Assembly (NCBI GenBank): GCA_024679065.1
Contig: JAGIQG010000006.1
Coordinates: forward strand, 43,772,001-43,836,000
Direction: 5' to 3'
Source: Sphyrna mokarran
Taxonomy: Eukaryota
Length of the DNA: 64,000 bases
The notes beneath the pieces are model-generated. The model made no database searches, was not told the DNA's origin, and saw only the letters and a list, made by a program, of their open reading frames with translations. A program made the translations under genes and the position numbers. This document shows, in pieces, positions 12,991 to 40,260 of the stretch (position 1 is its first letter; each line of letters begins with the position of its first letter).

Positions 12991-15900
12991 CCCCACCACC
13001 ACCTCCTCCTCCTCCTCCCACCAACACCTTTATTTTGTCGCCAGACCTAAAATAGCTGCGGCCCTTTCTGCTTTCCTCCCTGCAAATAATGTGACCAATC
13101 CTAGCTGTGGAGGACCCGTTGTCTCTTTGGATAGATTAAAGCTTCTCTGCTCGGGGTAACGTGCCTCTTTCCTAACCCACCCCCCACCCCCAACCCCCCG
13201 ACTCCCCTTGAATTTCTATTCCCTCGCATTGTTGCTTTGAGGCATTTTGACATTGCTCTCAAAAAGCAGGGCCTTGCTGTTTGGGGAACTGGAAGTCAGA
13301 GCTCTCTCTCTCTCTACGCAGTGAGTCCATATGTAAAGAAGCAAACAATTTGCTCTGCTGTTTGTTTTTAATCGCTTCCCCGTCGTGGCCAAATGCTGTC
13401 TGGTCCCGGGATTCTTCAATTAAAATGTGCTCGATAATCGGCAGCGTGCAGTCAGATCAGAGATGGAAAGTTCACCGAATGGCTGAATGCTAAGTATCAT
13501 GCGACTCTTCGAACGCGCTGTCCTCCTGTTCCATTAGTATGTGTAGTAAAACATTACATAAAATCTTTACTGCGAGTCTTCTGTGTCATTTTATTTCGCA
13601 GATCCGAGGAATGTCTTATGAAACGTATTGCGCCTATGACTCTAAGTAGCTACTAAAAAAAAATGCCGCTTTACTTGGGACACCCGAGGATTTATTTTTA
13701 AAAGAGAGACAACCCGTCATTCAAAAACCTGCTCCCAGAGTTAAAGAACATGGATTGGCTCCGCATATAAGTAAAACACGACTCGGTTGCTTCATATGCT
13801 CCTCACAGGAGAAAATGGAACTGATCGAAGGACCATGTAGAATTCCCGCTCTGGTGTGGGCCTGGTTAGTTTGTTAAGCTCAAAGATATTACCATGATGT
13901 GCACACGAATTTTTCCCTTTCACGATTCATTATAACACCCTTTAGGTTTGCAGACTAATTAGATATGTGTTCAGCCAGTGAGTTTATTCAGAAACTAATG
14001 AGATTGTACGAATCTCGAGCAGAATCATATCACGCTGTTTCATTTTCTGTCCCTTTACCAAAAGGACGCTGCTACATCACTTTTAATGTTTTTATTAATA
14101 CGATCTCATATTCGTGTTAAAATTTCACTCAATATTACAAGCAATGCGACGAGTTTCTAATAAATTAGACAAACTGTTTTGGCGAGGTTTTGAAATTATC
14201 TGTTATCAGTTTCTCCTGTTATTGTTCATTTGCATATCTGTTGTATACTTATATAAGTGTGGATATTATGTTTAAACTATTGCTTATTTAATGCAAATTC
14301 TATATTTCAATTGACAATCCTAGCCTTTGAAATAGTGTTCATTTGATGCTTTATTAGTATTTAAATAACTAACTTAGGTTAAGAAGTGTTGGCAGTGTGG
14401 CACAGCATTCCACATTGGTCTTAATTTTTCAATGACAATACTTTGCCAACGTTTCATTTCAATTGGATCGTTTTCAGGATTCTTATTGCAGCCATGATAT
14501 CAGAAAAATGTAACAACTTGGTAAATGAATAAACGCAACAATAGCAAGCAGTCGATAAATTAAACTGAAATGTAACCGTTAGAAATGGCACAACAGACTG
14601 TAATGCTGTTATACAATTCCAATCCTAGTCCCACATAAAATGTCATCGCATGCAAAGGATGAGACAATTATACATTTTTATCAAAACACACGAAAGGCTT
14701 TAAATGACACAGGCTGTGACGTTAACGTTACTGCGCAGCAGATAGGTCCATTTTGAATTAAATGCTGGCTCAGTAACCACACTACACAAGGAAAGATTTT
14801 TTTCCATCATAAGGGTCATTTTCATGAAATGACACCAGTGTCGCCGTAAATTGCAACAGTGCACATTAAAACAGCTAATAGATTAAAGAGTGAGCCATTA
14901 CTAAAGGACCCCAAAATACTAAAGTCTTTTAAGTGGATTTACAATATGATGAAGCGAATTGTGGACAAATATCTCAATCCATTTTGACATGTTCTGGGAT
15001 TTGCTTAACTATGCTCTTAAGCGAATGACAATGTGTCCAATTATTGCAATATATAAGGCATGGCAGACTGACGTGCAAACAGACAGCAGACCTTTCTGTA
15101 TTTATTCTCAATTTTTGCAGTTTCAGGGGGCCTATTATAATATAAACGCAACCGTTAAAACTTATGGTTTTCTTAATATCATAAAAGGTGAAAGCTGTAT
15201 ACCAAAAATGAAGGTTATGTAAGTTGGATGTCACAGAAGACAGTGCTATAAACTATATGCAATGCCGACATACCTTAATACACCTTGTGCAGCATCCTTC
15301 CAAAATAAATAATTCACGAAGAACACTTGTAATGCAATTTTAAATGTTTAAGTGCATATTACTGTTCGAAGGAATAGACTATTGCTAGTGCGACTAAAAA
15401 CTAACCCAATGTATTTAAAAAAATCTTGGGAATGATGTCGGTATATAGTTACCCATGTGAGAGGCCGGTAGTGAGCTGCATTTTGTGTAAATACCAACCT
15501 CATTATATCTGTGTCCTCAAGTCTGCAGCAATATTTTGTATTAGGAATGCACAATCTCTCGAAATGAATCAGCTCGAATACACAACGACGGTCAAATTGA
15601 AATGAATCTCTTTTAAAATTAGTTCATAGTCATGTGCTATTCATTTTATGTGTATACACGAAAATGTCATCTCAGGAAATGTAATCCTAACCGGTTAGTT
15701 GCACCATTTTCAGGGGGAAAGTCCTTCAGTGCCAACGTCACTAAAATATACTAGTTGCCAAAAATGATTGCAGCAATAATAACTACCTGTCACATGGGTT
15801 AGCTTTCACTGGCAGCCGCGTGTTTTAATGGGAATAATAATTAAAGGCAATGGAAGTGGCAATAGTGAACGTGACGATTATACACTCGTGTTTCATTACT

Positions 15901-18689
15901 GATGTTCCCAATTCAAACCTGCCAATCTTCTTTTGGTTGCCTTATTACTATATATACGCCTTTGGCACAATAAAAGGAGGCTTTAGATTATTTTGTTAAA
16001 TGCTTATTTTAGCCACTTTCCTATTGAATTTATAATTGAATTAAGAATTTCGAAATACAGGGAGCAGTCTAAAAACACCATAAATATCGGCCAGTTTTAC
16101 CTGATTAGCGTGGCAAGGGTACACCTATGGAGACAATACTCACACAACCTTTCCATAAAACGTGTTCCCTTATGCAGGTGATGAACAGGGAGTATTTTAC
16201 CACGAATTTGATAGCTCACATTTCACCTTAATATTGTAAAATAAAAACCCTCAAAGGAACAGAGGTATTAGAAAATGAAGAAAGTATGAATATTCATTGC
16301 CTAAACATAAATTTAACTACATATATGCAGCAAAAATCCAGGTTGAAATACATTTGAAAGGTGTATCTATGCCAGAGCTGCTAGTTGAGTCAAGTTTTAA
16401 ATGAAAATGTCACCAGTGGTCTGTAGATTGGGACGTGATTGTCATGCCACTGTTGTAATCTTTTTATAGGTTTCCAGATGGATTCAGCGATATTACATGG
16501 CATGGATTTGAAGTACCCTCGTGATCTTAAAATAATGTCGCGACTACATATGTTAATATTCAGAATTCATAATTGTCTGCGAATGTACATGTGCACGTGA
16601 GCTTTATGTGATACATGGCTAGAGATACACAGACCTATATTCGACATTTTGCCGCCCCAATTCTGGTTTAGATAAATTGATGTAATTAAAACGAACAGTA
16701 CTGAGTCATTTTAGGAATCACCTATCTCATTGGAGTCGTGTGTCATGGTTATGAATAAGCCTCAGACCACTAAAACGAGATCTTGCTAGTCAAAACAGCC
16801 ATCTTGTATGATAAAAGGCCATTTAATTATAGCTATCTGTAGCGCTTTTGCAAAACACTTGGCTTGCATTCTGTGCGACTCTACTTTTTTTCTATACACA
16901 ACATTTGCATTTTTATCTTATTATAGCTGATCAGTGTCATATACATTTTGAGTTGGGGCGCCATATCTTTTACCAAAACTGTGTTTACATTGTGAAGGCA
17001 ATTGTTTTAGGTACCACACTCTGTCAAAACCTTCCTACATGACATAATAACAAGGCCAGTGCGTCATTAACTAAATGTTTTTATACGTTGAACATAGTAC
17101 ACAATTCACATGCATTTGTATACACGAAATACAGAATTTTTTTTACCGTTTTCGTCGGTATTATGTGTCAGAACATGAATGTATCCGGTTTACTTTCAAC
17201 CTGCAAAACATCCATGAATTGAAGAGATTAGTTAATGCTATTAGAATGCCAATAATTCTGACAAATGCTTTAAAACGTTGTAAAAGGTTAGAAAAAGGAT
17301 GTTTAATCTTCTGATAACGTATTTGTGACATGAGAGGTGTTTGAAATATAAATAGTTCCACTCAATTCCTCCTTGGTCACTTAACCCTGTTGTGTAATAA
17401 AGTCATGAATATTCATTCGTACATTACATGACGCGAATCTGCAACCCACAAGACAGTTTTAAGATGTTTGTTGTTATTGCAGAGCAGTGATTTTCTAAAA
17501 CAAAAACTGCTTTCCAGGGCATGGGAGAATCACATGAAATGGCGAAAAACTAAACTGTTCATATACGTTGTTCGGAAGTAGCTCCTGTATCCATCTTCAA
17601 ACAAGATTAAGGCAGGTCGTTTAAACTGAAGGGAAGACGAGCCAAGAACAAGATATGAATGCAATCTAGCGTTTTATGACTATCGGCGAGGTGTGCTTAT
17701 AATAAGATTTCCACCTTCTGCAATTATTAAAATCACGACCTCAATTCAAACAATTCAAAGCAATAGGATGCTACAGCTACTCATATATTCAATGTTATTA
17801 TTCCAATGTTTGGATTATAGTTTTGTTTTCAAAGTGGTGAAACCACAATTAAAATACGTTGTAAGTGATAAATGCGATTATCTACGGACAAAAGAAACAT
17901 AATGCACGCTCACTTCGCCACATTTACTGAAATATAGATGCGTGCCCTAGTTCTGGATTTCCCCTGAAAGACTGGATTGTTTGCAGTTAAACGCTCCCTG
18001 ATCTCTGCCCTATTGTCGAGCTCTGGAGCCTCTCTGAGTGCCACTGACCGTGGCAATGAGACTGAATTCAACTCGGCCAACGGATATTGTGTATATCTCT
18101 GTGAAACAGAACGTAGCAAGTCTGATAATAAAGCAAACAACTCAACAGCCATGTCAGTAATGCAAACACACGGTTGATGGCGGCATTAGATTATTTTCAG
18201 CCTGGTACCTGGAATCATTATCCTTATAAAATACACCTTGCACATACATATTGGGAGTCCCTCCTGAAAGCACAGTACATTTTGAATAGAGATCCGCAAG
18301 CAGAGCCTGGTCTCTGCTTGTCTGTCAGTAATATAAACTAGTAACAACTTCGTCATCTTCATAATTTAACAGAGTCCCAGTCACAGATTATGGCAAAATA
18401 TTTCAGAATCATAATTAAAACAACGGAATCTGCCAAATACTGCGGCCCTATCCAAACCGATAAACAGCAGCCAGATTCACAGATAATGTAACATGAGACA
18501 TAATAGATCGAGAAAGAAGCATAGATATAGAATAAGATTGAGGAGCCGAGTGAATGGACTGAATATATCTGACCAAAATGCACATCTGATGAAGTTTTGT
18601 ATGACCAAATGTCAGCATGCTGTACAACTGTAGAATGCAATGTCCGTTTCCCTTTTTGTCAGAAGCATTTCGGAATGATTAAACAGCAA

Positions 18690-18716
18690 CCCCCCCCCCC
18701 CCCCCCCCCCCCCCCC
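18690..18716. repeat. poly-C tract (~27 nt)
   Basis: Directly visible; poly-G on the host strand. Confidence 0.9.
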
Positions 18717-19137
18717 GCCAAACACACACAATCGAGTAATGTAAACAGTCAAAATCAAGTTCAACACCATTAAAATAATTACCATAACAATTTCAATGAG
18801 CATCCTTTCATTTCCAGGCAAGATACCAGCGCTAACACACATGCTAACTTTAAATTGGTATATTTTATATTTTACAGAAAAATACAATAATTCTATGTAA
18901 CTGAGTTGGACTTTGGTAAAACAAACTCACCTTTTTACTTTAAAATACCAAAGTTATTGCAGCAAATTTATCATTTATTACACGGAAGAAATTCATAATG
19001 TGATCAGCCAAATCATTAACTCAATGAAAATATAGATATTGATTTAAGATTAAAATATAATTTAACTAACATTAGAATTGCCACTGGCACGGATTGTTAT
19101 CTAGTGCAACCAGATGCAGGAAGATGTGTATACTTAC

Positions 19138-19323
19138 AGACTGGTGGATGATAAACTTCAAGGAGGTTTCATTTCTGAAATCTTGATGCATAAAACCCCG
19201 CAACTGAAAGGTCCTTTTGGCAAGTTTTGACTTCTTCATCGGCCTCAAAGCAACCAATGCCATTCCTCGACAATTTCATTCAAAAATAGCCGCTTATTTC
19301 CACATTATTCTGTTGTAATGACA
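19138..19323 (-). ncRNA. candidate internal exon (186 nt) of the host transcript
   Basis: Minus-strand acceptor TTTCCTCTCTATTCTAG|TGT and donor TCT|GTAAGTA. An alternative strong donor AAG|GTGAGT lies at 18930. Confidence 0.6.
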
Positions 19324-19399
19324 CTAGAATAGAGAGGAAATCTTCCACTCTTTAAGGAAAATAACTTTTTCCCCTATAACATTTTGCTCTCTCAAGCCC

Positions 19400-20810
19400 A
19401 AGAAGTAAAAAAAAGTGACGGTACTGCCGGCAAGTTTTTTTTTTGGAAGGGGGGGGGGAATGGAAGAGGGGGGCCGGGATGAAGATTGTCCAACCCCTCT
19501 GGCGGAGACGTGGTCTGAAAATCAAATAACTTCCCCATTTCTTTTGTTGCTGATGAACTGAAGCCCTATTGTTCATTCTTTGCATGATCTGATTTTTTTT
19601 GTGTGTGTGGAAGGGCCATTCCCAGAATACGCCGTGCCTTCTCTCATTTGGCGAATAATGTATTTCTTCAAACCGCCTCCCCACCCCACCCCCTCCCCAA
19701 CTCCAACACACACACACACACACACACAGACCCTGTCTGACAGACACAACAAATGAGAATTTATTTGAATAGAGCCAAGAGCGGACAAGAAACTCCCTTG
19801 TTTTTTTAAAAAAACATATTTTCGCGTGTGTGTATGTGAGTGTGTGGGGAGTTAACAGGCCCGCCGGGAAGTTCACGTGTTTACACCCCATCATTACGAT
19901 TTTAATTGCTGAACTTTTTCCCTCTTTCAAAGAGCACTGAGTCCTTTTTCTTCCCCACACAAGAACTCCAGACATTGATCGTTGTCCTTCCGATAGTTGT
20001 GGCGATCCCAGAAGCTTCCAGTTCGCACTTGGCTCTCTTCAGCCGCTTTGCTTTGTCTTCTCTCCAGCAACCACCTCCACCACTACACCCACCCGCCCCC
20101 CCACCGCCACACACACATCTCGCATACAGTTTTCTGTTTTGCTTCTTTAATATAGTTTTATTCAGTTAGTTCTCCCTCCCCCACTCTCTTCGTCGCCGAC
20201 AAAAATAAATAAAGTCAAAACAAAACATTTTCTTTTTCAACATAAATTTAAAAATCTGTAAACTCCTGACTGCGATACTTTGGTCGCCTCCCCCTCCCGC
20301 TCTTCGGGAAAGTACATCAGTAGTGGACTAAGGAGCAAGATTCCTGCGACGGGGAGGCGCTGCTGCACTGCCGTTCCAACCTGGGCACCCAGACTGGGCG
20401 AATAATAAAAAATAAACAGGCCGGATTTTCCCGCCACCGCCAGCTATTCATTCCTGTGGCGGGAATAATCTTTCACTCGCCGTTTTAGGCAAACAGACAT
20501 TTTTATTTTCCCTCTCACCACCGCCAAAAATAAAAAAAATCAGGATTTTCTCCAGCTTTTCTTTTTTTCTCGCTCTGCTTCCTCCTCTCCTCCCCCAGTA
20601 TACATCTAAGAGGAAGCGAAGCCAGTGATATAACTTGGAGATGCTTCACTGAAGGATTTTCCAAGAGTCTGTGGTTTTTTTTTACACATACACACAGCAC
20701 GCCCAGTGTATCGGCGAGGTCACGTCTGCCTACGTCACGTTAAAGTGTACGTCTGGCAACATTTCACATGAAATTATTAGCAACAAGACAAATATGCAAA
20801 TAGCCAGCTT
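19400..20810 (-). promoter_or_regulatory. proximal promoter / first-exon region of the miR-9 host gene
   Basis: CpG/GC-rich, about 8 kb upstream of the hairpin. Minus-strand TATATTAAAG at 20154-20145, donor-like G|GTGAGA at 20518, ACGT/half-CRE cluster 20722-20752, octamer ATGCAAAT 20794-20801. Confidence 0.55.
19706..19728. repeat. (CA)n microsatellite
   Basis: Directly visible. Confidence 0.9.
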
Positions 20811-23800
20811 ATTGTCTGACTGCAACAGAATTGATGGCGTTGTCCCAATTTATATTTTCTAAGCCTTCGTTTTTTTGTGCTTTCCAATAAGAAGACTGTC
20901 AGAATAGAGCGTGCAGGAATTTTTATATATGTAGGGACACTGGAGAAATATCCCTGCGTAATAACGCCGGTGGTGCGCCATCACCTCTGCTGTTGGCTGT
21001 AACGTGTGCGTTATTTTTAATATGTATACCTCTGTAAGTGTTTACTCACTTTTTTTTATTTTACCGAAGCTATTGACCGAAAAGGTCGGTTTCTACATAA
21101 ATATTCCAATGTATTATTGCTCCTTTAAAAAAACTCTATGTAAAGGCTACTTTTGTACTTAAATAGGTCATTCGTTTGGGCTTACGTTAAAATTAGCGCG
21201 TTGGAATCCTGTATACATATGTATGATTTCAACAACTACCGCTTCAATGCGATTTTGAATATGCATGTGTACACTTTAATGTCTGACATACTGATTTTAC
21301 CTGGCAAAGAATTTTATATTTGCCTAACCATTTATAATAAATTGGATGGATTCTTGTTCTAGTTAAATAATAATTATTGCTTGTTACGGATTTCAAAATA
21401 TCATGCCTTAGTTTCAATGCCCATGTTTGAAACTGCCTTTAAGGTTTCTTTGAGTGTGCCAGGAATATTTTGTTTTCCCATTCGTGCATCGATTTAAATA
21501 TTTAAAACACAACTATTAGCATCTTGTACAGTCAATGAGCCCCAACTCATAATCAACAATGTGCCTGGCAGCCTTGCCCTTCTGATTATACACAAAGGAT
21601 ACAAATTAAGATTTGATATATAAAGGGCAGGTGTTTCATATTTTTAGTCATACATTGGCATTTCCTTGCGCTTAAACAATCCACACAGCATATGATAGCA
21701 GCATTTTTTTAAAAAAAAGTATAATTCGTGCACCTTAAAAATTATGCCTGGTAAATATTAACTCATTACTCACCAATGTGTTTCTAACAGTTGTCACACA
21801 ATCCTTACATGTTCCTCATCTTTTTTTATGGAACTGTATTTGCAGAATCTGTGGCAACATACGTATTTAAAATGTTTTAGTGAACAAACATGCTTATACA
21901 CCAAACATATTTCATATTTATCACAAGATAGCAATCAGATGTGTACCGTTTCCTAGTGTTGGTTAGAATGTATGACTTAAAAGTTTAAATTAGTAGAATT
22001 ACCAGACTCTCGTAGCAGGAGTACCTGTACTGACAATTAGTTGCAATGTTTTTTATAGTCATGATCTTATAGACTCCAACTGTAGTTTTGCCTTCACGCA
22101 TACGCCAACAATTTTCGATCGTGCATTTCTTTCCTAGTGCGATCTTACAAAGCGATTTGAATAATTGACCAATTCTAATTGTTTGCTTCATACTCATTGC
22201 ACGGGTTAGTTTGCAATGGTGTATATTTACTATGATCTTTTTGTCTTATTTTGATGAATCATTTGGAGTAATATTCGTAGGGGGCGCCGTGAAATTAAAC
22301 TGCTCTGATAATATGGAACTTGAACAGTCTCTGCTTTTTTAGAATTGATAAACGCGTTCGAACCCAATTTCGCAGTGGAATTATTTACATAGAAAACGCG
22401 TTGGTATTAATATTACATTTCTGCACACCAATCTATTGATTGTGCAATTAACATTTGGTTGAGTGCATTTAAATACATCCTTATATTTAACACTTGACTT
22501 CAAACGTTTTTATTGTGGCCAAATGTGCACAACTCGCCTTACCTGTACATTTCAGAGCCAATGCGTAATTCTACACCACACAGCAGTTTGGAAACTCATA
22601 AACCACTTAACGTTTTGACTCATAACATATTTACATTTAATTGTATAACATTAATCAAATGAATAAATTTATATAAAGTATATACTCTAAGAGATCACTG
22701 CGATTTATTCGGTTGCTGTATACATTCGATAGATTTAACAAGTAGATGAGCTGAGTCATAATGCTTAAAGACTAACGCACTTCGACTTGTATAGCATACA
22801 GTACAGCTGTTTATTTATTGGCATATTATTATTTTATCGTGAAAATAAAGCATAGTTTGTTATGTGCACCTATGTAGAAACTGTTGTTTCATCGAGCTTT
22901 TTCATCCAGTCAACTAATTTCCATTTAACTAAGACGATTGCTGATAGTATGTATTTAAAGTATTGTAACATTATCACTAAACATTCTTATTTGTTGGCAT
23001 CCACAATGACAAATGTTTTTAAAATGTAAATCACTTTTCCAGTGCGTTTTATTTTAGCTTTCACTACTTTCGGTACCCTCGCCACATTCGCCACCAGCAG
23101 TTTAGCTTGCACGTTCAGACATTACAAGCACCCTTAGTTATCTTCCACAAAATGGCATTGGTACAGAATAGCTTGCCTTGCAAACAATGCTAGAAATTCC
23201 AATCAGAAGCTATACTTCTGTAGATTTTTGGCAAGGTCCTAAACAATGCCAGCCATGGTGCACAACAGGTTACACTCACATCCGATTTATTAGACGCTGA
23301 TGTTATTATTTTGGCAAATTGAAGCACATGGAGTCTTGGTAGTAATTCTGCAACTTGGGAATTAATTTGAGTTAACATATAAACCGTCCGTTTACTTTCT
23401 CTTTCAATATGTTGAAATAATAATTGAATGTGTCGTAAACAAACAATGCGACAAAGTATCATTTATGTTTGTATTTTAGAAATAGATTATTAACCAAGAT
23501 CTTATCCACGAATCCATTATGTAATTATCAGATAACACCAAGTCAACTGCCTGACGGTTTTTTGTCTAGGTTTTCAATAATTATTGAATATTTAAACAAA
23601 ATTGACACTAAGTTGTCACAAGAATTTTGGCAGTATAATGTAATAAACAAATTAATATTGTCGGGTTTTCACTAAACGAACAGCTTGTGGAATTTGTAGG
23701 TTTAATGCCGCAATATTCGGGAGCTTCAGTGTACCAGACTGAACCAAAGTCTTAATTATTATACGGTATCAGTAATATATTCAGTTTATTCCATCATTGT

Positions 23801-26334
23801 TACTTTATAGAATTGCTATAATAAAAAAAGAATTCCACAAAATGTGATTTAGAAATATACTAATATACTTTTAAATCACTTTTTATATTTAATGATAAAA
23901 GCAGCATCATACAAATATCAAACATATCGTGTATTCTCTTTTATATAGTAAGTTTCTATATAAGACATGAAATAAAACATTGTCACATTTGAAAATTCGT
24001 ATCAACTTTGCTAGATATCCTTATTGAAACATACACACAACAAATATCATTTTCCATTCAAATAATAGTGATAGTATACATTTATAATGATGCAACACTG
24101 ATTATATACACTTGTGTGCATCAAAACGTGTTAATTGCAACATGTATAAACGCAAACGACAGTCATATTACCATAATTTGCATTTGACATAAACATGGCG
24201 GATATTTAAAAAAATCAATAAAGGAGTAAATGCTGCAAAGGAGTCTAATTTAAGCAAGTAAATAAAAAAGCACCTTGCATAGAAACATGAAAAACTGATA
24301 TCACCTTGATATGATTTGTCGAGCGAATGGGCGGCGCCAGCAGTGGAAGGGCGACATCTTCTGGCAGCATCTCGTTTCTACTTATGCAACAGACAGATGC
24401 TGTGATTTTGCTCTTCACACCGAAAAGCCAATGGTAGCAAAAGGTGTTTTCCAAACAGCTTGTAAAACCAAAAACAAAGAGAGCAACATTAGCAGAAGTC
24501 CATAGTGAACAATCAACAACATTTTGGAAGCGAAGGAACTGTCAATGAAGGCTGTATATAAGTTGCAACTAACCATAAACAGAACATATGTAATATTTCT
24601 GAATCCCGTCACCTGATACCTTCGTTTAAAATTTACATGCAGCGCGCATATATTTGGAACGTGTCAACATAAATGACTTCGACATTATTAATTCAGAATG
24701 TGAGCAATAAAGCGCACAGCCCATTAAGGAAGCTGAAGCATACAGAACGAAAAAAAATGTTAGGGTAATACTTGACGTTACAGTCCGTTGTTAGTGCAAT
24801 AAAATCTGTTTCATTTGTAGATTACATTTGTGCAATAATGCATTAATATACATAACATGGAGTCCACTTCCTCGTTATGAGCTACATTTTATCGACCTAT
24901 GTGAATATTCATCAGTCATAATTTCCAAAATAACGTCAAAGACTATACTTTCGAAATATCACCCTTTGCCCGTGCGCTTATGTGGAGGGGCTGAAATATT
25001 TCTAGGCAATGAAAGACAACATTGAGGGGGAAGAAACAGAAGAAAGATGACATAGCGTACTGCATCTTTCCATAGATTGACCATACGTATATTTGTCAAA
25101 CCTCAAAATAGAATACTTCTGTCTAATGTCTTCATTATATTGCATATACAGTCTATAATGTTTCTAATGCAATTATGCCATTCATTGTAAATGGTGATTG
25201 TGACAAATATATTTCAAAATGCAATAGACGTGATTGAATTTAGATATAAAGTACAGAAGAATATTAAAATTATAGTAATTAAACTTGACTTCTGAAGTGT
25301 CTTGTTTAAATATAAAAATCCTTAAATATGTATATTATATATATCTATCTGCAAAGTAATAAACGATTTGCTGAGCTACTATTGTTATTTTTCCCATTGC
25401 AAATTGTTTGGAGCGACTGTAACTGTCGGCAAGAAATTGTAATTTTATATATTGAAACAAAACAAAAGATGTGGGTTGTCAATAAGTTTCCAAAAAGGTG
25501 AATTGGTTCTGTTAGCTACAAGTTTAAGAAATACTATCACTATTTTTTTTCATGTTATCTTTAAAACAGGTAATTTCTACATCTTAAAGATTAATCATTG
25601 CATGAATATCCGTTCTTAAAATTATCAAGATGTTTTGTAATTGGAATTCAAATAAATGCTCCACCTAAGATCAAACCAATATTATTTTTAAGAATCGCAT
25701 CTTTTATATAAACGCAGTTATTTTCAGTTACATAAAAATATAGCTTCAAGTTTTATGACAAACATATTTCATTATGCAAAGTCAAGGCAACATAGCAGGC
25801 CTAGTTCTATTAGATATCACAGCCTGAAAGGTTATTGCGTTCAAAATGTCCACTGATAGGTAAATTGACACGCTGTTCAGGTTTTTTTAAAAGAAATTTT
25901 TCCATTCCTTGCTATTAGCGCGAAATGTCTCAACTTTCATCTTGGGGTACATTTGGTTCAATAGAAAATGCACGCAGAGAAATTCAAAAGGAAATCGAGA
26001 TTAAAATACATCAGAAACGCAAGCGTATTGAATCAAATATTAATATTTACCCAAATAAAAATCCTAGGATTTGCAATAAACCGCACTTCAAGCTCAGGTT
26101 TAATTTACTTGCATTGTAATTTTATACAAGTTATTAAGTATTGTTAGGATTTGTGCTCCATTTGCTAAACATGTCTTCGTTGTTTTATAAAGTATAGAAT
26201 AAAAATGCAGCTTCAAGGTTTATAAAACAGTAATTCCGGTCATATACTGTAATGCTGGAATCAGTTAGCCATTGTTAGTGCATAGTAAATATTCATGTTG
26301 GGGTGAGAAAAAAGCGTCGAGTTCCAGCCCCTTT

Positions 26335-26760
26335 ACTTACTGTGCAACGCAAAGCGGCCCCTGGGCTCTAACCTCAGTCTCAGAACACTGCAAGTAACTG
26401 AAATTCTGCCCGATCCCTTGTCTGGGATCATATATTCGTGATCTGCAGAGACAACGACAAATAGTTTGAACGTTAGCCAAAAGACAATTTCACCAGCAAA
26501 TCGGTAAAACGTGACGTTCGCTACTTTCGGCTGTTTAACTCTGCACAGACCTGAAAGTTGACCAACGGATCTCAAAGTACAAAAGACTATCTGTTTGAAA
26601 TCGTCCCCTTACTGTTAGACTTATTAGCAATGCAGACGTTGTAAACGGTGGGAAAATTGATGGAATTTTTGTACAATTTACTTTCCTGTTTAGCATTCGG
26701 AAACCACAACACAGAGACTAAAGCTCCCCCACGCCCCGCCACCGCCCCCTCCCCCCACAC
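26335..26760 (-). promoter_or_regulatory. candidate distal promoter and first exon
   Basis: GC-box run 26726-26758, GTGGGAA at 26648-26654, CpG-rich 26300-26600, and minus-strand donor CA|GTAAGT at 26340. Confidence 0.4.
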
Positions 26761-29700
26761 TAAAGGCCTTTCTTAATATCACTCAAATATAATTTGCGAT
26801 AGACGTGTCACTGCTGAAATGCCACACATTAAAATACGCACAGTTAAACATCGTTTTAGTAATCAGGGCTCCATATATTTTGGATATTTCGACCACTTTG
26901 TACATTTTTAAGTGCGGTAGACTCGCAACACCGAACTTTAAAAGCATCTACAAAACACTGGATGTTACAGATCAGCACAAAAGGAGTCAGGCAGAGTTTT
27001 GGCATAACAGATATAAATTTTCCTTTTTTCTTACAATTTTTACTTAAACCCCTTAAAACTGAAAGTTTAGATTTAAACTTGTTTTTATATTTCGGTTACT
27101 TCAGAGTGCAATGCATTGCTTTGTATAAGGTTCGCTTGTTACCTGTACCAGATTTCCAATTGCCTTCTGGGAATAAATGCATAAAAGTCCACGTGTGCTC
27201 TAAATAAATGCAGAAGGACACACCTTTTAAAATGATTACAATCTGCTCTTAAAAGACATGCCTCGTGTCATACTCTTGCATACCTATAGTCATGATTAGA
27301 TATTACTCCGCATTTTTCATATAAATTATTTATCGCATGACTACATAATAAATAGGTTTGGATAATTTCTGATCAAATAGACCCCTATTAAATTATTTTG
27401 GCCAAAGTGATTGGTTTTCAGTGTGACAAACAATCACAAAAAAATGTCACGATTTGCATCAATGGAAGGGGCATCGAGGTCAAGAAATGTGGCAAGGCAT
27501 ACAATTATTAAACATTTTACAAAGTTTCTCCCTCAGGTCAATTCACTTTATTGCAATAAATAGCATCCAGTGTCGAATAATTCTTTTATTTGAAAATGCA
27601 TTATTTATTGTTTATGTAGGGGATTTATGACCAACTTCGAACGTAGCATAATAGCACTTAAACAATGTATATGTCAAAACTTTATGGGAATGCGTCGTAT
27701 CTATAAAATAACAATATTATGAGCTATTTCTCTTTGAAATATCGGACTTTTTGTTTGGGCGCAAGTGCAACAAGGAAACTTTGCAACTCAGAGCGAAAAC
27801 AAAATCAATTCGCCTCCATCTCAAACAATATCAAACTCTACTGATCGCTGAATATTATGTACCAATATCACACTTCAACTTTCCTTCAAAACATATGCTT
27901 TTGACCTATCTGTATTCGATTTATAACGGCTATTCAGAATGCGTAGATCAGAGGGAAATAACTTAAGGGGGGACAAACAAAATAAATTCTATTTTATAAG
28001 GGCATCCCGACTTGTTGGAACTCGCTGTCAATACTTTGGTTCCCCAGTAGAAGTTCATTTAATGACAGTATTTTGAGATATTTCTTGCCCATTAGTGACG
28101 ATTTTAGCAGCGTTTTAACAGAGAGGATATTCAAACAATCGAGTGGCTTTTAAAGGGACAAGAAAGCATGTTTAGATTAGTTAACAAATGCATGTTTTGA
28201 TAGACGCCATTTCACAAATATACATGTCATCAGTGTTGGCTTAAATGGAAAACGAAATGTACAGAATACTGTGTTCTATCTTTGGCACTGCATATCTTAT
28301 TTCGAAATGCCTGAAATAATCGAACAAGCTGGGGAATCATTCATTATTTTCCCTTTAAAAGTATACCTTTATCCCGATACATGTATTAATGTTGATTGAG
28401 GATGCAGAGGAATGTTTCAGTATTCCTGATCCTTAGAATGCTGATTTTAAAACCTTCCAGTGTTTAATAACCATGTGGTATTATTTCCACATTCACAAAA
28501 GAGGGCCGGCCAACTCTACGGCAATATTTTCCAGTCTTTTGACCAGAATAGCTAAAATATTCGTTACGTCTGAGACTTAACACGAAATGTACTCTTCATT
28601 AACTCATTTTAGATGAACTAATTTTGTCTTTAGGGTAAGACAGGTAATTTCAAATTCATATTTAACAATCTGCGTGTTTCTAATTATTTCTTTATAATGC
28701 CAACAATCAACAAGCTTTATGAATTAAAAATTACAGTTACAGATTAATATAACTGTTGTTAAACCAATATTTTTTTTAAAAAACTGATTAATTTGATGTC
28801 CCATTTTCTAACTTCCAGTTTAAAGTAAGTTGCCATTGGTAGGTTATTGCGCAAATTAGACCGCTTTAAGGGTCCATTATTTTTACAGGCAGAGGTACGT
28901 GAAATTAGGTTATAACATGTTATAAGCCACGCTCAATACTCATACATCTCACAAAACAAAGTAACAGCATCGACTACAACGGGAATTCAACAATAAATAA
29001 CAGCAAAAGTTATTTTGCTTAAAGGAACTTCATTTTATCAATTAAGCAGATTGTATGTGACATCATCGATGCAGTTCAGAATATTTAAAATAACATATTC
29101 AGAAGTTATAACTTTGCCGAGTAGCAGTGAACTTAAATATAGCTCTATATTCTGGAGTTTTGAGCATGAGAGCATTGGACAGCAATTTAATCCAATGAAA
29201 GAAATGCTTAGAAAAATACGAAGCAGCACCATCAACTTTGTGGATAGTTTATTTCAAAACTACTTAGACTTTTTAAAATGTAATAAGCGGAGCCACGGCC
29301 ATCGCGCGCTGATTGATCGAAATACAAAAGCGCATTGCGATGAGTTAATACTATATTCGAAAAAACTGTTCTCGTTTCCATATCTTAAAATAAGACATGG
29401 CGCATAACATTTTCAGCGACTGATAATATATCATCAAATTAACAGAGAAGTTCAATGCGATACTTATTTACAAATATTGCATAATACCCATGTCTATAAA
29501 GAGAGCGCTATTATTTTGTGGAAGAGGTTGAGATTTAACGATAGAATCAATGGCAAATAACAATCAGATTATCTGGGACTCAAATTAGCTGGGAGAGCTT
29601 CTCTACATTTAGAAACCTGGATGAACGACACTGGAAGGTATTGCAGGGATTAAAAAATATACGCGGAACGATAGGATAAATTAAGTCGTAGTTTAATGAT

Positions 29701-32124
29701 ATCAGATTCGGACTTTAAGATACATTTAAGTTGTCACAGGAAGTGAAGTCCGAATAAAGATGTCCACCGCTTTGAAGTTTTGAGAACGAATACGTCAGAA
29801 GAGGAGAAAAAAAATCAAGGTTTGCGCAACAATAATAATAAGTACACAATTGGTACAATAGGTCTCTTCATTATTAATAGGGGTGATTGGAGAACAAGTG
29901 TCTTCCATAATATAATGATACTAAAAAACAAAGTAACTTAAAGGCTAAAGAATGGCAGAGTGAGGAGTTAAAAAACTATAGAGGGGACAGCCTTATAAGA
30001 ACTTGATGCAATGTAGCCTCTAAATGTGTCACGTGAGCACTGAGCAGAAATTTACGATTTAAGATTTCAGCTAACAGGACTTGCCACAGCAGGCAAGGGG
30101 TACTATTTAATACATTTTTTGGAATATTAGTGCCATAAAATGAAACATAATCAGCATAATTGAGTGCATACAGTACCCTATGTAACAAATACTTTCTATC
30201 ATAAATAATAATTCACGGTGCAACGTATACTGGAACATGAAATATACAACCTATGCGAGGACACACATAAACAGCAGTGTCTTGGAAAATATTGGTATAG
30301 TTACTATTGGGTGGCTTCTATCACACTAAACGCTAAATGATCCCCTAAAGGACAAGATGAATATAATGTCACATATGGTAAACTTAATCTTGTATTTCGA
30401 TTCACATGCCACTTTGTGGAAAATCATAAGAGCAACGGAAAATATTGAGGCGAATGAAATAGAGACGAACTCTTATGGGACGAAATCAGCGATGAATAAT
30501 TCCCCCATCCCCCAATCGCTCAACGTGTTTTGAATTTTCCTTTCGCAAGTAAAATGGGCGATGCTTTTAAAAATGTATAATAGCGAATAGATCTTTAATA
30601 CTTCATAGAACTTTTTTTGAAGGGTTGCAAATGCAAAGGCAAAACTAACTTATCACGAGGATGTACAGTGGGGAATTTAAAAAGTGCTTTCATTGAGTGG
30701 ATAAGATGATAATCAATATTATTCCAGCGATTATACACGGCATTAATATTTTTAGAACAAAATCAAAAGTCAATTTAAGTTGTGAAATATTTGGTTAGCT
30801 TTTATGCCAGAAATGAGAAGGCGCTGCTGACAAGTAAACAGAAACATTTGTACCGAAAGTATTACTTTTACCTTTTATATGTCGATTTTGATGGGAGAAC
30901 TTTAGTGTCCAGTTTGAATTTAAATAAAAATCTGTGGAAGGATAGTTGCCATTATTAGAGTAAAGTTTTCTTCAAGCACTGGAATAGTTTCTGTATTTTC
31001 TTTAGGAAATGATTTTTTTTAACTGGGCTAGATTATGTACTATTTTACTGGAATTTTAAGGTTTAGTTTGACACATTGACGGGAAGAAATAGAAATTCTG
31101 AAGTCTAACAAATATAAATCGATTATTTAGCGATCTCTAGCGGTGGAACAGAGTAAAGACTGAAAGGTGTGGACATACATAAACAGCAGACAGAAACAGC
31201 AGCTTGATTGACTTAGCAAGGCACGACATTGTGGCGAACACAATTTTACTTTGCTTTAAAAACATTCTCATACTTTTCTCCGTTACTTAAAAAAATGAGT
31301 ATGTACAGAATTACTCTATGTAATTAGAATGCAAAAGCAGCTAAAGTACATACATGTATTTTACATGTATTCTGTAAGTTCAGAATACATGTATTCTGTA
31401 AGTTCTAACTTACAGAAGGGTGAAGATGTAATACAATTGAAAATGCTTAATAAAGAATAAGTCAAAACATTGTCATGATTGTGGAATGTGTTTGAAATAT
31501 TTAACTAACAAATGTCATAATTAGTCTCAATAAGCCTCGCCTCAAAGAATAGTGAGCCACGCCAACCATTATCAGGGCAGGAGGACGCAGGAGGGGAATG
31601 GAAAATGGAAACGATCCATAATAAGAGCCAAGTTCAAATAAATGAACAAAATGAAACGTATCTTTTGAATTTTTGCTGATCATGGAGTATATCGGTAAGA
31701 ACATAGTCCACCAGTTTTCTCTGAACAGTTGGAAATGCTTGCGAAGTTTCGGGAATTTATAGATGAAGGCGTGTTGACATATAAGAACTTATGTTCACGA
31801 ATGTTACAATTTGACAGAGGTTATTCTCTGCTTATCACAACTACATAGAACGAGAAAAAAAGTTTCAACAGACTTTACTGTGTGCCTTTAAAAGTGGAAT
31901 AGCGAAAGCCAATTAGTCATGATGGACTTACATGTAGGTTAGTCTTACGTGTAGGTAAGTCCATTAGTAGTAACAGTACTAATGCCTTTGTTAAAGTACT
32001 GCACTGTGTGCAATATGGTCTCCTCACTCCAGAATATGTAGAGAATACAATACAATTTTTTGGGCTGCTGCCTAGTATATGAAAACACTGCCTTAAAATT
32101 GCTTACAATAGTGCCAGCAGTGGT

Positions 32125-39169: not shown

Positions 39170-40260
39170 CCAATTTTGAGATCATAATCAAACATTAAAA
39201 GTTCTCATCACTGCACAATTTTTCACTGAAAAAGAAGAGGAAGATACTCCTGAAAACATTTGTGACAATTTGAGTGCTTCTCACCTAAAGGCAACTTGTG
39301 GAGTTTTCTGCCATGCATACTACTTAGTTTAAAACAACAGAGCTTGTTCTAACCACTTTGATTTATTGGAACTTCAGAATGGAAAGGATGTTGGTGTGGG
39401 AATTGGGTTGCATTCATGCTACAGTGCTGGAGAAATTATTGACCATGCGGCTACGCACATGAGGAAGAAAATTTGTCAGCATATCAAAATAGTTGAGGGT
39501 AACATTTTGATTCTAATTGATGAGTCTGCAAGCCTAAGCAACAGAATCACTCTAGTAATTTACCTAACATGTGGAAGCGAAAAAAAAGATGATTCACACT
39601 TCATGTTTTTGGATTTGATTGAACTTCCAGATCTAAAAGCTAACTTAATAGTTAAATGTCTTTGTGAATGTCTTGCAAACCATGCTTTTGACGACCCTTA
39701 CCTGAAGCCTCATCTTGTGGTGTTTGTTACTAATGGAGCGATGTTACGCTAGGCACCAAATCAGGTGCACCTAACGGGCTCATGGAGCAACAACCAGTAT
39801 TATTATTTGGGATTGCCTGAACATAGATAAGAACTTGCAGTGGACAAAAACTATTTCCATTCCTTCATGGACAAACTATACTCTATGTATGGTTGCTCCA
39901 GTCCCTACATATCTACTACATATCAGCCTGTCTTCTGTCTCAGAGATCTCCATTCCCTGTTGTGCTTACAAACTCTTGGTCCTAATTCAAGCTATGTGAT
40001 ACTCTTCTGCTGTGTTGCCCTTAAAGAGATAATCATCACAATCTCCATAATTGTCATCTACTTCTTCAATCAATGCATTCAGAGATAATGGGGAAGAAGC
40101 TGGACAACGCATTCCCCAGAATTTATGACCATTCCTAAATTGCATGCGAACAATTCCAAGCAGCACTGCAGAATTTAATCAAATGAAATTAATTATAACA
40201 CTAATGTGTTCAAGAATTCTCATATGGTACCTATTAGTGATTATGCTTGTAAAATGCATT
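39170..40260 (+). pseudogene. hAT transposase fossil, KIAA1586/ZNF862-like
   Basis: ORF 39366-39752 has ILIDESASLSNRITLVIYL and FVTNGA. Out-of-frame continuations give LGTKSG, IIIWDCLN, FHSFMDKLYSMY and TIPSSTAE..FNQMKLII, in hAT domain order. Disrupted by stops and deletions. Confidence 0.85.

Follow-up and report, generated by a model that had tools for sequence, protein, structure and literature searches.

A 42-codon open frame in the miR-9-2 host locus of Sphyrna mokarran, probably an incidental small ORF

Identity of the locus

The window analysed here is a stretch of 64,000 nucleotides from Sphyrna mokarran (assembly GCA_024679065.1, contig JAGIQG010000006.1, positions 43,772,001 to 43,836,000), which carries on its minus strand a mir-9 precursor hairpin and, about 7 kb upstream of it, the open frame under study (Table 1). 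Searching the 2.77-Gb genome, we have placed a MEF2 MADS exon 166 kb upstream of the hairpin and exons of TMEM161 some 297-350 kb downstream of it, both on the minus strand, the gene order being TMEM161 - miR-9 - MEF2 with all three on one strand. Two further miR-9 loci are found in the genome, one of which has the identical three-gene order, as a paralogous MEF2 - miR-9 - TMEM161 block of the same order and strand on contig C838 (10.81-11.13 Mb). Because this block has the same three genes in the same order, we take the flanking genes to be MEF2C and TMEM161B from the neighbours of the mammalian locus together with the primer matches.

Three of the 17 published mouse and human host-gene primers tested match well and in a cluster, 1.0-1.3 kb below the hairpin (19/22 at position 10721, 17/20 at 10892 and 18/23 at 11030). 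The 62-aa human LINC00461 smORF, for which a mean PhyloCSF of -3.3 and a maximum of 0.4 are given in the peptide records (PMC13577902/PMC10032668/PMC11909191), maps to the window frame 11349-11143, which lacks an ATG, with the motifs GFLEE, AERHDG, SPLVK and VLLC in common and with gaps that are apparently frame-keeping. This likeness probably reflects conservation at the nucleotide level, yet no other frame observed in this analysis is as well conserved. Hairpin, synteny, primers and human smORF all bear out the first-pass annotation in its naming of the miR-9 host, and the assignment as the miR-9-2/LINC00461 (C130071C03Rik) orthologue is supported by these sequence likenesses.

The layout is indeed that of LINC00461 (MIR9-2HG; C130071C03Rik or Visc-1 in mouse), where TMEM161, miR-9 and MEF2 likewise lie on one strand; the terminal-exon primer and smORF matches are common to both, the hairpin would lie about 0.65-0.7 kb inside the terminal exon in both, and in both short ORFs would enter that exon from an upstream exon. 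Homology to the mammalian host exons covers the terminal exon only (three of 17 primers and one smORF), and neither the 17 mouse and human primers nor the human peptides anchor the candidate exon at 19138-19323. Mouse Visc-1 is reported without ORFs longer than 100 aa and with a TSS unalignable to non-mammals (PMC4585502). AK082072 (PMC2926783) was set aside as a different lncRNA more than 200 kb away.

Several other features of the window were noted. A 102-aa ATG ORF with a strong Kozak context lies at 10417-10725 (minus strand) in the conserved terminal-exon region, and a primer for the mouse host gene finds its match (19/22) 4 nt past that ATG. The GC- and CpG-richer stretches at 12900-13200 and 19700-21200 resemble a proximal and a distal promoter of the host RNA, the number of CpG being raised across 6000-32000 overall, and a very GC-rich CpG island at 7550-7950, about 4 kb below the hairpin and bearing a plus-strand CCAAT-like box, is a possible antisense promoter. 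A 139-codon frame at 39333-39752 (plus strand) reads like what we presume to be a decayed piece of a hAT-type transposase.

Table 1. Features of the window bearing on the candidate frame.
Feature	Position	Strand	Basis or remark
Candidate exon (186 nt) of the miR-9-2 host RNA	19138..19323	-	weak predicted splice sites
42-codon open frame, GGA-ATG-G to phase-0 GTAAGT donor	19138..19263	-	letters
63-aa read-through ORF, stop 19074-19072	19072..19263	-	letters
MWK-stop upstream ORF, in frame with the 19263 ATG	19294..19305	-	letters
36-codon out-of-frame ORF overlapping the 19263 start, weak context	19169..19279	-	letters
mir-9 precursor hairpin	12030..12106	-	Rfam RF00237, 82 bits, E 1.1e-14
Matches of published mouse/human host-gene primers	10700..11052	.	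conserved terminal-exon sequence
69-codon stop-free frame without ATG, resembling the 62-aa human LINC00461 smORF	11140..11349	-	by eye
Strong donor AAG/GTGAGT (18930)	18925..18933	-	rank 2/1140 GT in 12110-32000
12168 acceptor and NPSP-stop	12154..12188	-	rank 122/1024 AG; two other AG within 21 nt
12807 acceptor and following frame	12711..12827	-	rank 10/1024 AG

The open frame and its chance expectation

Re-reading the sequence, we find every letter of the first-pass description in place: the exon ends (an acceptor-like TTCTAG/T at 19323 and TCT/GTAAGT at 19138, spanning 186 nt), the GGA-ATG-G at 19263, the MWK-stop in frame with it and the 42 codons open up to the phase-0 donor. The 42/63-codon frame thus exists as described, within a microRNA host locus that is already known. 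The start context at 19263 is strong, and the exon contains two upstream ATGs, at 19305 and at 19279, the second of which is absent from the earlier description. The whole 186-nt exon is closed in every frame and could therefore serve only as a start-bearing exon. The 63-aa product had been ascribed to use of a second donor at 18930; its length and frame exist, but the donor is unnecessary to it, since the stop precedes that donor by 141 nt and plain read-through suffices. A short unspliced RNA could end at an AATAAA (18974-18979, minus strand) that lies about 90 nt past the 63-aa stop and precedes the 18930 donor by 48 nt.

The first-pass description cautioned that ORFs this short also arise by chance. 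In dinucleotide shuffles of the exon an ATG open for at least 42 codons to the exon end was obtained in 1805 of 20000 cases (9.0%), and in 240 of 20000 (1.2%) when a purine at -3 and G at +4 were also demanded. Between 6000 and 32000 the minus strand holds 30 ATG ORFs of at least 42 codons, 8 with a strong Kozak context, and the plus strand 33, one with such a context. We have also assembled 193 consensus-bounded pseudo-exons from six strands (the window and two paralogous regions), 18 of which are open for at least 42 codons and 3 of which, the candidate among them, add a strong Kozak context; the candidate's layout is thus shared by 2 of the 192 others. With 7 pseudo-exons in the host region, this amounts by our own arithmetic to about 7% for at least one such layout, which is uncommon and is expected about once per 14 such loci. 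A 179-aa ATG ORF (228 codons from stop to stop) just upstream of the candidate exon, at 19352-19891 on the minus strand, crosses TG repeats and G/C/A runs and is likely a chance product of low complexity.

Splice sites and the status of the exon

Splice sites were ranked within 12110-32000 using an approximate matrix based on the vertebrate consensus, on which scale the 19138 donor comes 89th of 1140 GT and the 19323 acceptor 76th of 1024 AG. AG-GT pairs of 50-300 nt that are equal or better at both ends number 73 (65 on the opposite strand), and three further AG compete with the 19323 acceptor inside 28 nt, while a search over 60 nt gave no branch-point consensus. To call this exon cleanly bounded was an overstatement, both splice sites being weak and 73 pairs being as good. 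A better-looking candidate exon was observed at 26341-26442 (minus strand), having an acceptor of rank 7/1024 with CTAAC at -34, a GTAAGT donor and an ATG open for 30 codons.

The weak splice sites with their many equals, and the missing branch point and competing AG at 19323, favour a reading that we hold to be possible though on balance unlikely, namely that 19138-19323 is intronic or promoter/enhancer DNA and that the ORF never stands on a mature RNA. The candidate exon adjoins a GC-/CpG-richer stretch (19200-21200), conserved enhancers are described at the mammalian locus (bioRxiv 10.64898/2026.03.27.714903), and the exon structures of miRNA hosts are reported to diverge fast, with a median human-mouse transcript-transcript identity of 8.5% (PMC4739325). 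The very strong donor at 18930 argues otherwise, as do the reports that hosts with exonic miRNAs keep their splice sites (PMC4739325) and that those of mouse Visc-1 are conserved in mammals (PMC4585502). A mouse 261-nt exon at a similar distance also speaks for an exon here, lying 5.3-5.6 kb above the terminal acceptor (PMC7671363) as against 6.1-6.5 kb for the candidate, a match of position only; the sole translated ORF listed for this mouse exon has its start in exon 1 and takes up 49 nt of it.

As to the partner of the 19138 donor, joining to 12168 had been proposed to add NPSP-stop and give 46 aa. The letters fit, the stop falling at 12156-12154, 47 nt ahead of the Rfam mir-9 match, but 12168 is weak as an acceptor, and no branch-point consensus was found upstream of it. 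The 12807 acceptor is free of both faults seen at 19323 and 12168, its AG zone being clean and a CTGAT lying at -15, and a phase-0 splice from 19138 to it would add 32 aa, giving 74 aa in total; acceptors at 12620 and 12352 also score well on the same matrix. In the human Ribo-seq ORF c5norep85 the residues RRHL lie 8 codons into the terminal exon, and in the window they lie 9 codons after 12807. From this four-residue motif and its position, compared by eye, 12807 rather than 12168 is likely the conserved terminal-exon acceptor. After RRHL the window departs from c5norep85 (PFQL versus LLPS), the adjacent window frame reading LSSS, and from so short a motif we infer that the two frames part there. 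The upstream exon was not found in the window by searching with a human motif of 9 residues.

Coding signal, composition and homology

A Markov coding model was trained on a biased set, 30 GPCR ORFs without introns from the same genome. Over six settings the candidate is equalled or exceeded by 246-269 of 278 coding fragments and by 111-245 of 485 non-coding ORFs, its score falling where the two sets overlap. The first 27 residues hold 7 K/R and no D/E, which is matched by 2 of the 485 non-coding ORFs; the net charge of the first 30 residues is reached by 7 of 483 controls, the GC3 excess is reached by 9 of 483, and the synonymous codon choice, which falls inside the range of TMEM161 exon cores, is exceeded by 44-69 of 483 non-coding ORFs (top 9-14%). 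GC3 and codon choice lean towards coding; the charge, GC3 and codon tests were picked after the ORF was seen and are correlated rather than independent. The maximal amphipathic moment is ordinary (0.33 versus a control mean of 0.31, equalled or exceeded by 182 of 483 controls), and there is therefore no clear helix of the mitochondrial type. The suggestion of a targeting-peptide-like N-terminus thus stands for its basic, acid-free composition and falls for the amphipathic helix. The RNA fold of the candidate exon is unremarkable (z 0.54).

The candidate exon is single-copy in its own genome. A protein search with the ORF gave one candidate and none that scored, a search for longer proteins sharing words with the 42 aa found none (weak evidence), a Pfam search with two ORFs gave no family, and the best value of an Atlas search, 0.78, was below the lead level. 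Four matches in a 50% protein library were discarded: each was multi-stretch, and both of those inspected proved to be tandem-repeat proteins. These blanks in the protein databases are uninformative, because the control frame of the window that resembles the human smORF also finds nothing. Metagenome scans covered 438 stretches, none confirmed, and the 43 exact 17-mer matches had a best flank identity of 40/120 (mean 25%); given the same control, this blank is equally uninformative. In 40 kb upstream of the two paralogous miR-9 loci no homology to the exon was found (best E 0.11); the sole hit of a protein search of the own genome (E 2.5) was put down to chance, as was a likeness to window position 23250, equalled by 72 of 292 controls. 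Between 18900 and 19600, 0.12-0.42 of sampled words occur in 18 sequencing-run rows, which come from 10 studies and 7 organisms with none recorded as RNA, and this carries no evidential weight.

The mammalian record and the case for a selected peptide

Ribo-seq of mouse hippocampus gives, over all 50 places in the supplement, three translated ORFs in C130071C03Rik, one of which, ORF164, has 23 nt in an upstream exon and 190 nt in the terminal exon (PMC7671363). Human c5norep85 crosses a junction with 27 + 63 nt (PMC13577902/PMC10032668/PMC11909191), and its listed intron is close in length to that of ORF164 (3464 versus 3445 nt). Given 23 + 190 nt in the one and 27 + 63 nt in the other, the junction phases differ between mouse and human. 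In the same human records c5norep85 is classed as primate-young de novo with a PhyloCSF (mammals) of -210.66, and two of three human cortex smORFs have mean PhyloCSF values of -5.3 and -3.3. By these sequence comparisons, limited to the ORFs listed, the mammalian ORFs of the locus are unconserved in frame. Six human LINC00461 peptide sequences from these records were compared by eye and none is like the candidate; four peptides are given in PMC11909191, sequences having been compared for two, and the three with coordinates lie more than 120 kb from the hairpin. In the literature listings searched, no report of a conserved peptide from the miR-9-2 host was found.

The strong Kozak context, the basic acid-free N-terminus, the GC3 excess and a codon choice compatible with local coding exons would suit a functional basic micropeptide of a bifunctional host RNA, of 46-74 aa depending on the acceptor or 63 aa by read-through. 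We consider this improbable, given the ordinary amphipathic moment, the two upstream ATGs within the exon, a Markov score within the non-coding range, the mammalian ORFs unconserved in frame and the human peptides compared, none of them similar. A selected, basic 42-codon coding exon giving rise to a neural micropeptide of 63 or 74 aa (or, with far lower probability, to an N-terminal extension of TMEM161B), lost or replaced in mammals, so that miR-9 and a peptide would come from one transcript, would likewise be a long shot. The earlier proposal of a bifunctional pri-miRNA/micropeptide transcript with splice-switched C-termini drew support from none of the tests run, because the features are near chance, the conserved acceptor is probably another than the one chosen, and the mammalian ORFs do not keep frame. 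It is very improbable that the phase-0 exon serves as another first coding exon, joined across about 304 kb to TMEM161 exon 2, which would lengthen this membrane protein at its N-terminus under a neural miR-9-2 promoter: TMEM161 is downstream on the same strand and its exon 2 (contig C1215, 43487468) opens with CCAG/GGT GTT ATA, so that donor and exon are frame-compatible, both being phase 0, but the prior for such a match is one in three, the 42 aa have no words in common with any longer protein searched (weak evidence), and the distance is large, with no sign of read-through.

A probable incidental small ORF on the host RNA

We favour, with moderate confidence, the explanation that the 42/63-codon frame is an incidental small ORF of the miR-9-2 host RNA and not a conserved micropeptide, although the basic N-terminus, the GC3, the codon choice and the strong start context count against it. 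The host RNA would have as its job the delivery of the miR-9 hairpin, from which Microprocessor would release miR-9, and splicing would join it to a terminal exon that begins near 12807. With this likely partner the frame would run to 74 aa and end some 600 nt ahead of the hairpin, a layout shared with the ORFs whose translation is reported for mouse and human. Provided that the candidate exon is spliced in, ribosomes would scan past MWK-stop and the leaky 19279 start to the 19263 start, the product being a short-lived peptide without a selected sequence, and any effect would be at most a cis effect on how fast the host RNA turns over. Nonsense-mediated decay follows a 50-55-nt rule, and were the 18930 donor used, the stop would lie 141 nt before the junction, a classical layout for such decay. 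For other pri-miRNAs, PMC9144653 describes smORFs that act in cis independently of their sequence; the same source reports that nonsense-mediated decay is not involved for the pri-miRNAs tested and that knock-in flies showed no effect, which counts against the cis reading.

Short ATG ORFs upstream of the hairpin are likewise found in pri-miR-155 (smORF51), pri-miR-497 (smORF63) and fly pri-miR-8 and -14; for these, translation and an effect on the pri-miRNA were measured (PMC9144653), whereas the candidate is known from sequence alone. Apela, Tunar and LINC00116/mitoregulin likewise have 40-70 aa, a good start context and basic residues; unlike the candidate, which is read from one genome and has no Pfam family match, these owe their discovery to an ORF that is conserved and has a significant dN/dS (PMC4739325).

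If true, a selected peptide on the miR-9 host RNA would change the reading of host-gene knock-downs. More probable than such a peptide is a smaller lesson, that ORFs which are translated but unconstrained in sequence enter the hairpin exon. Such ORFs recur in mouse, in human and, by layout, in the window studied here, and conserved translation of an unconserved peptide is a testable idea for the dosing of miR-9.
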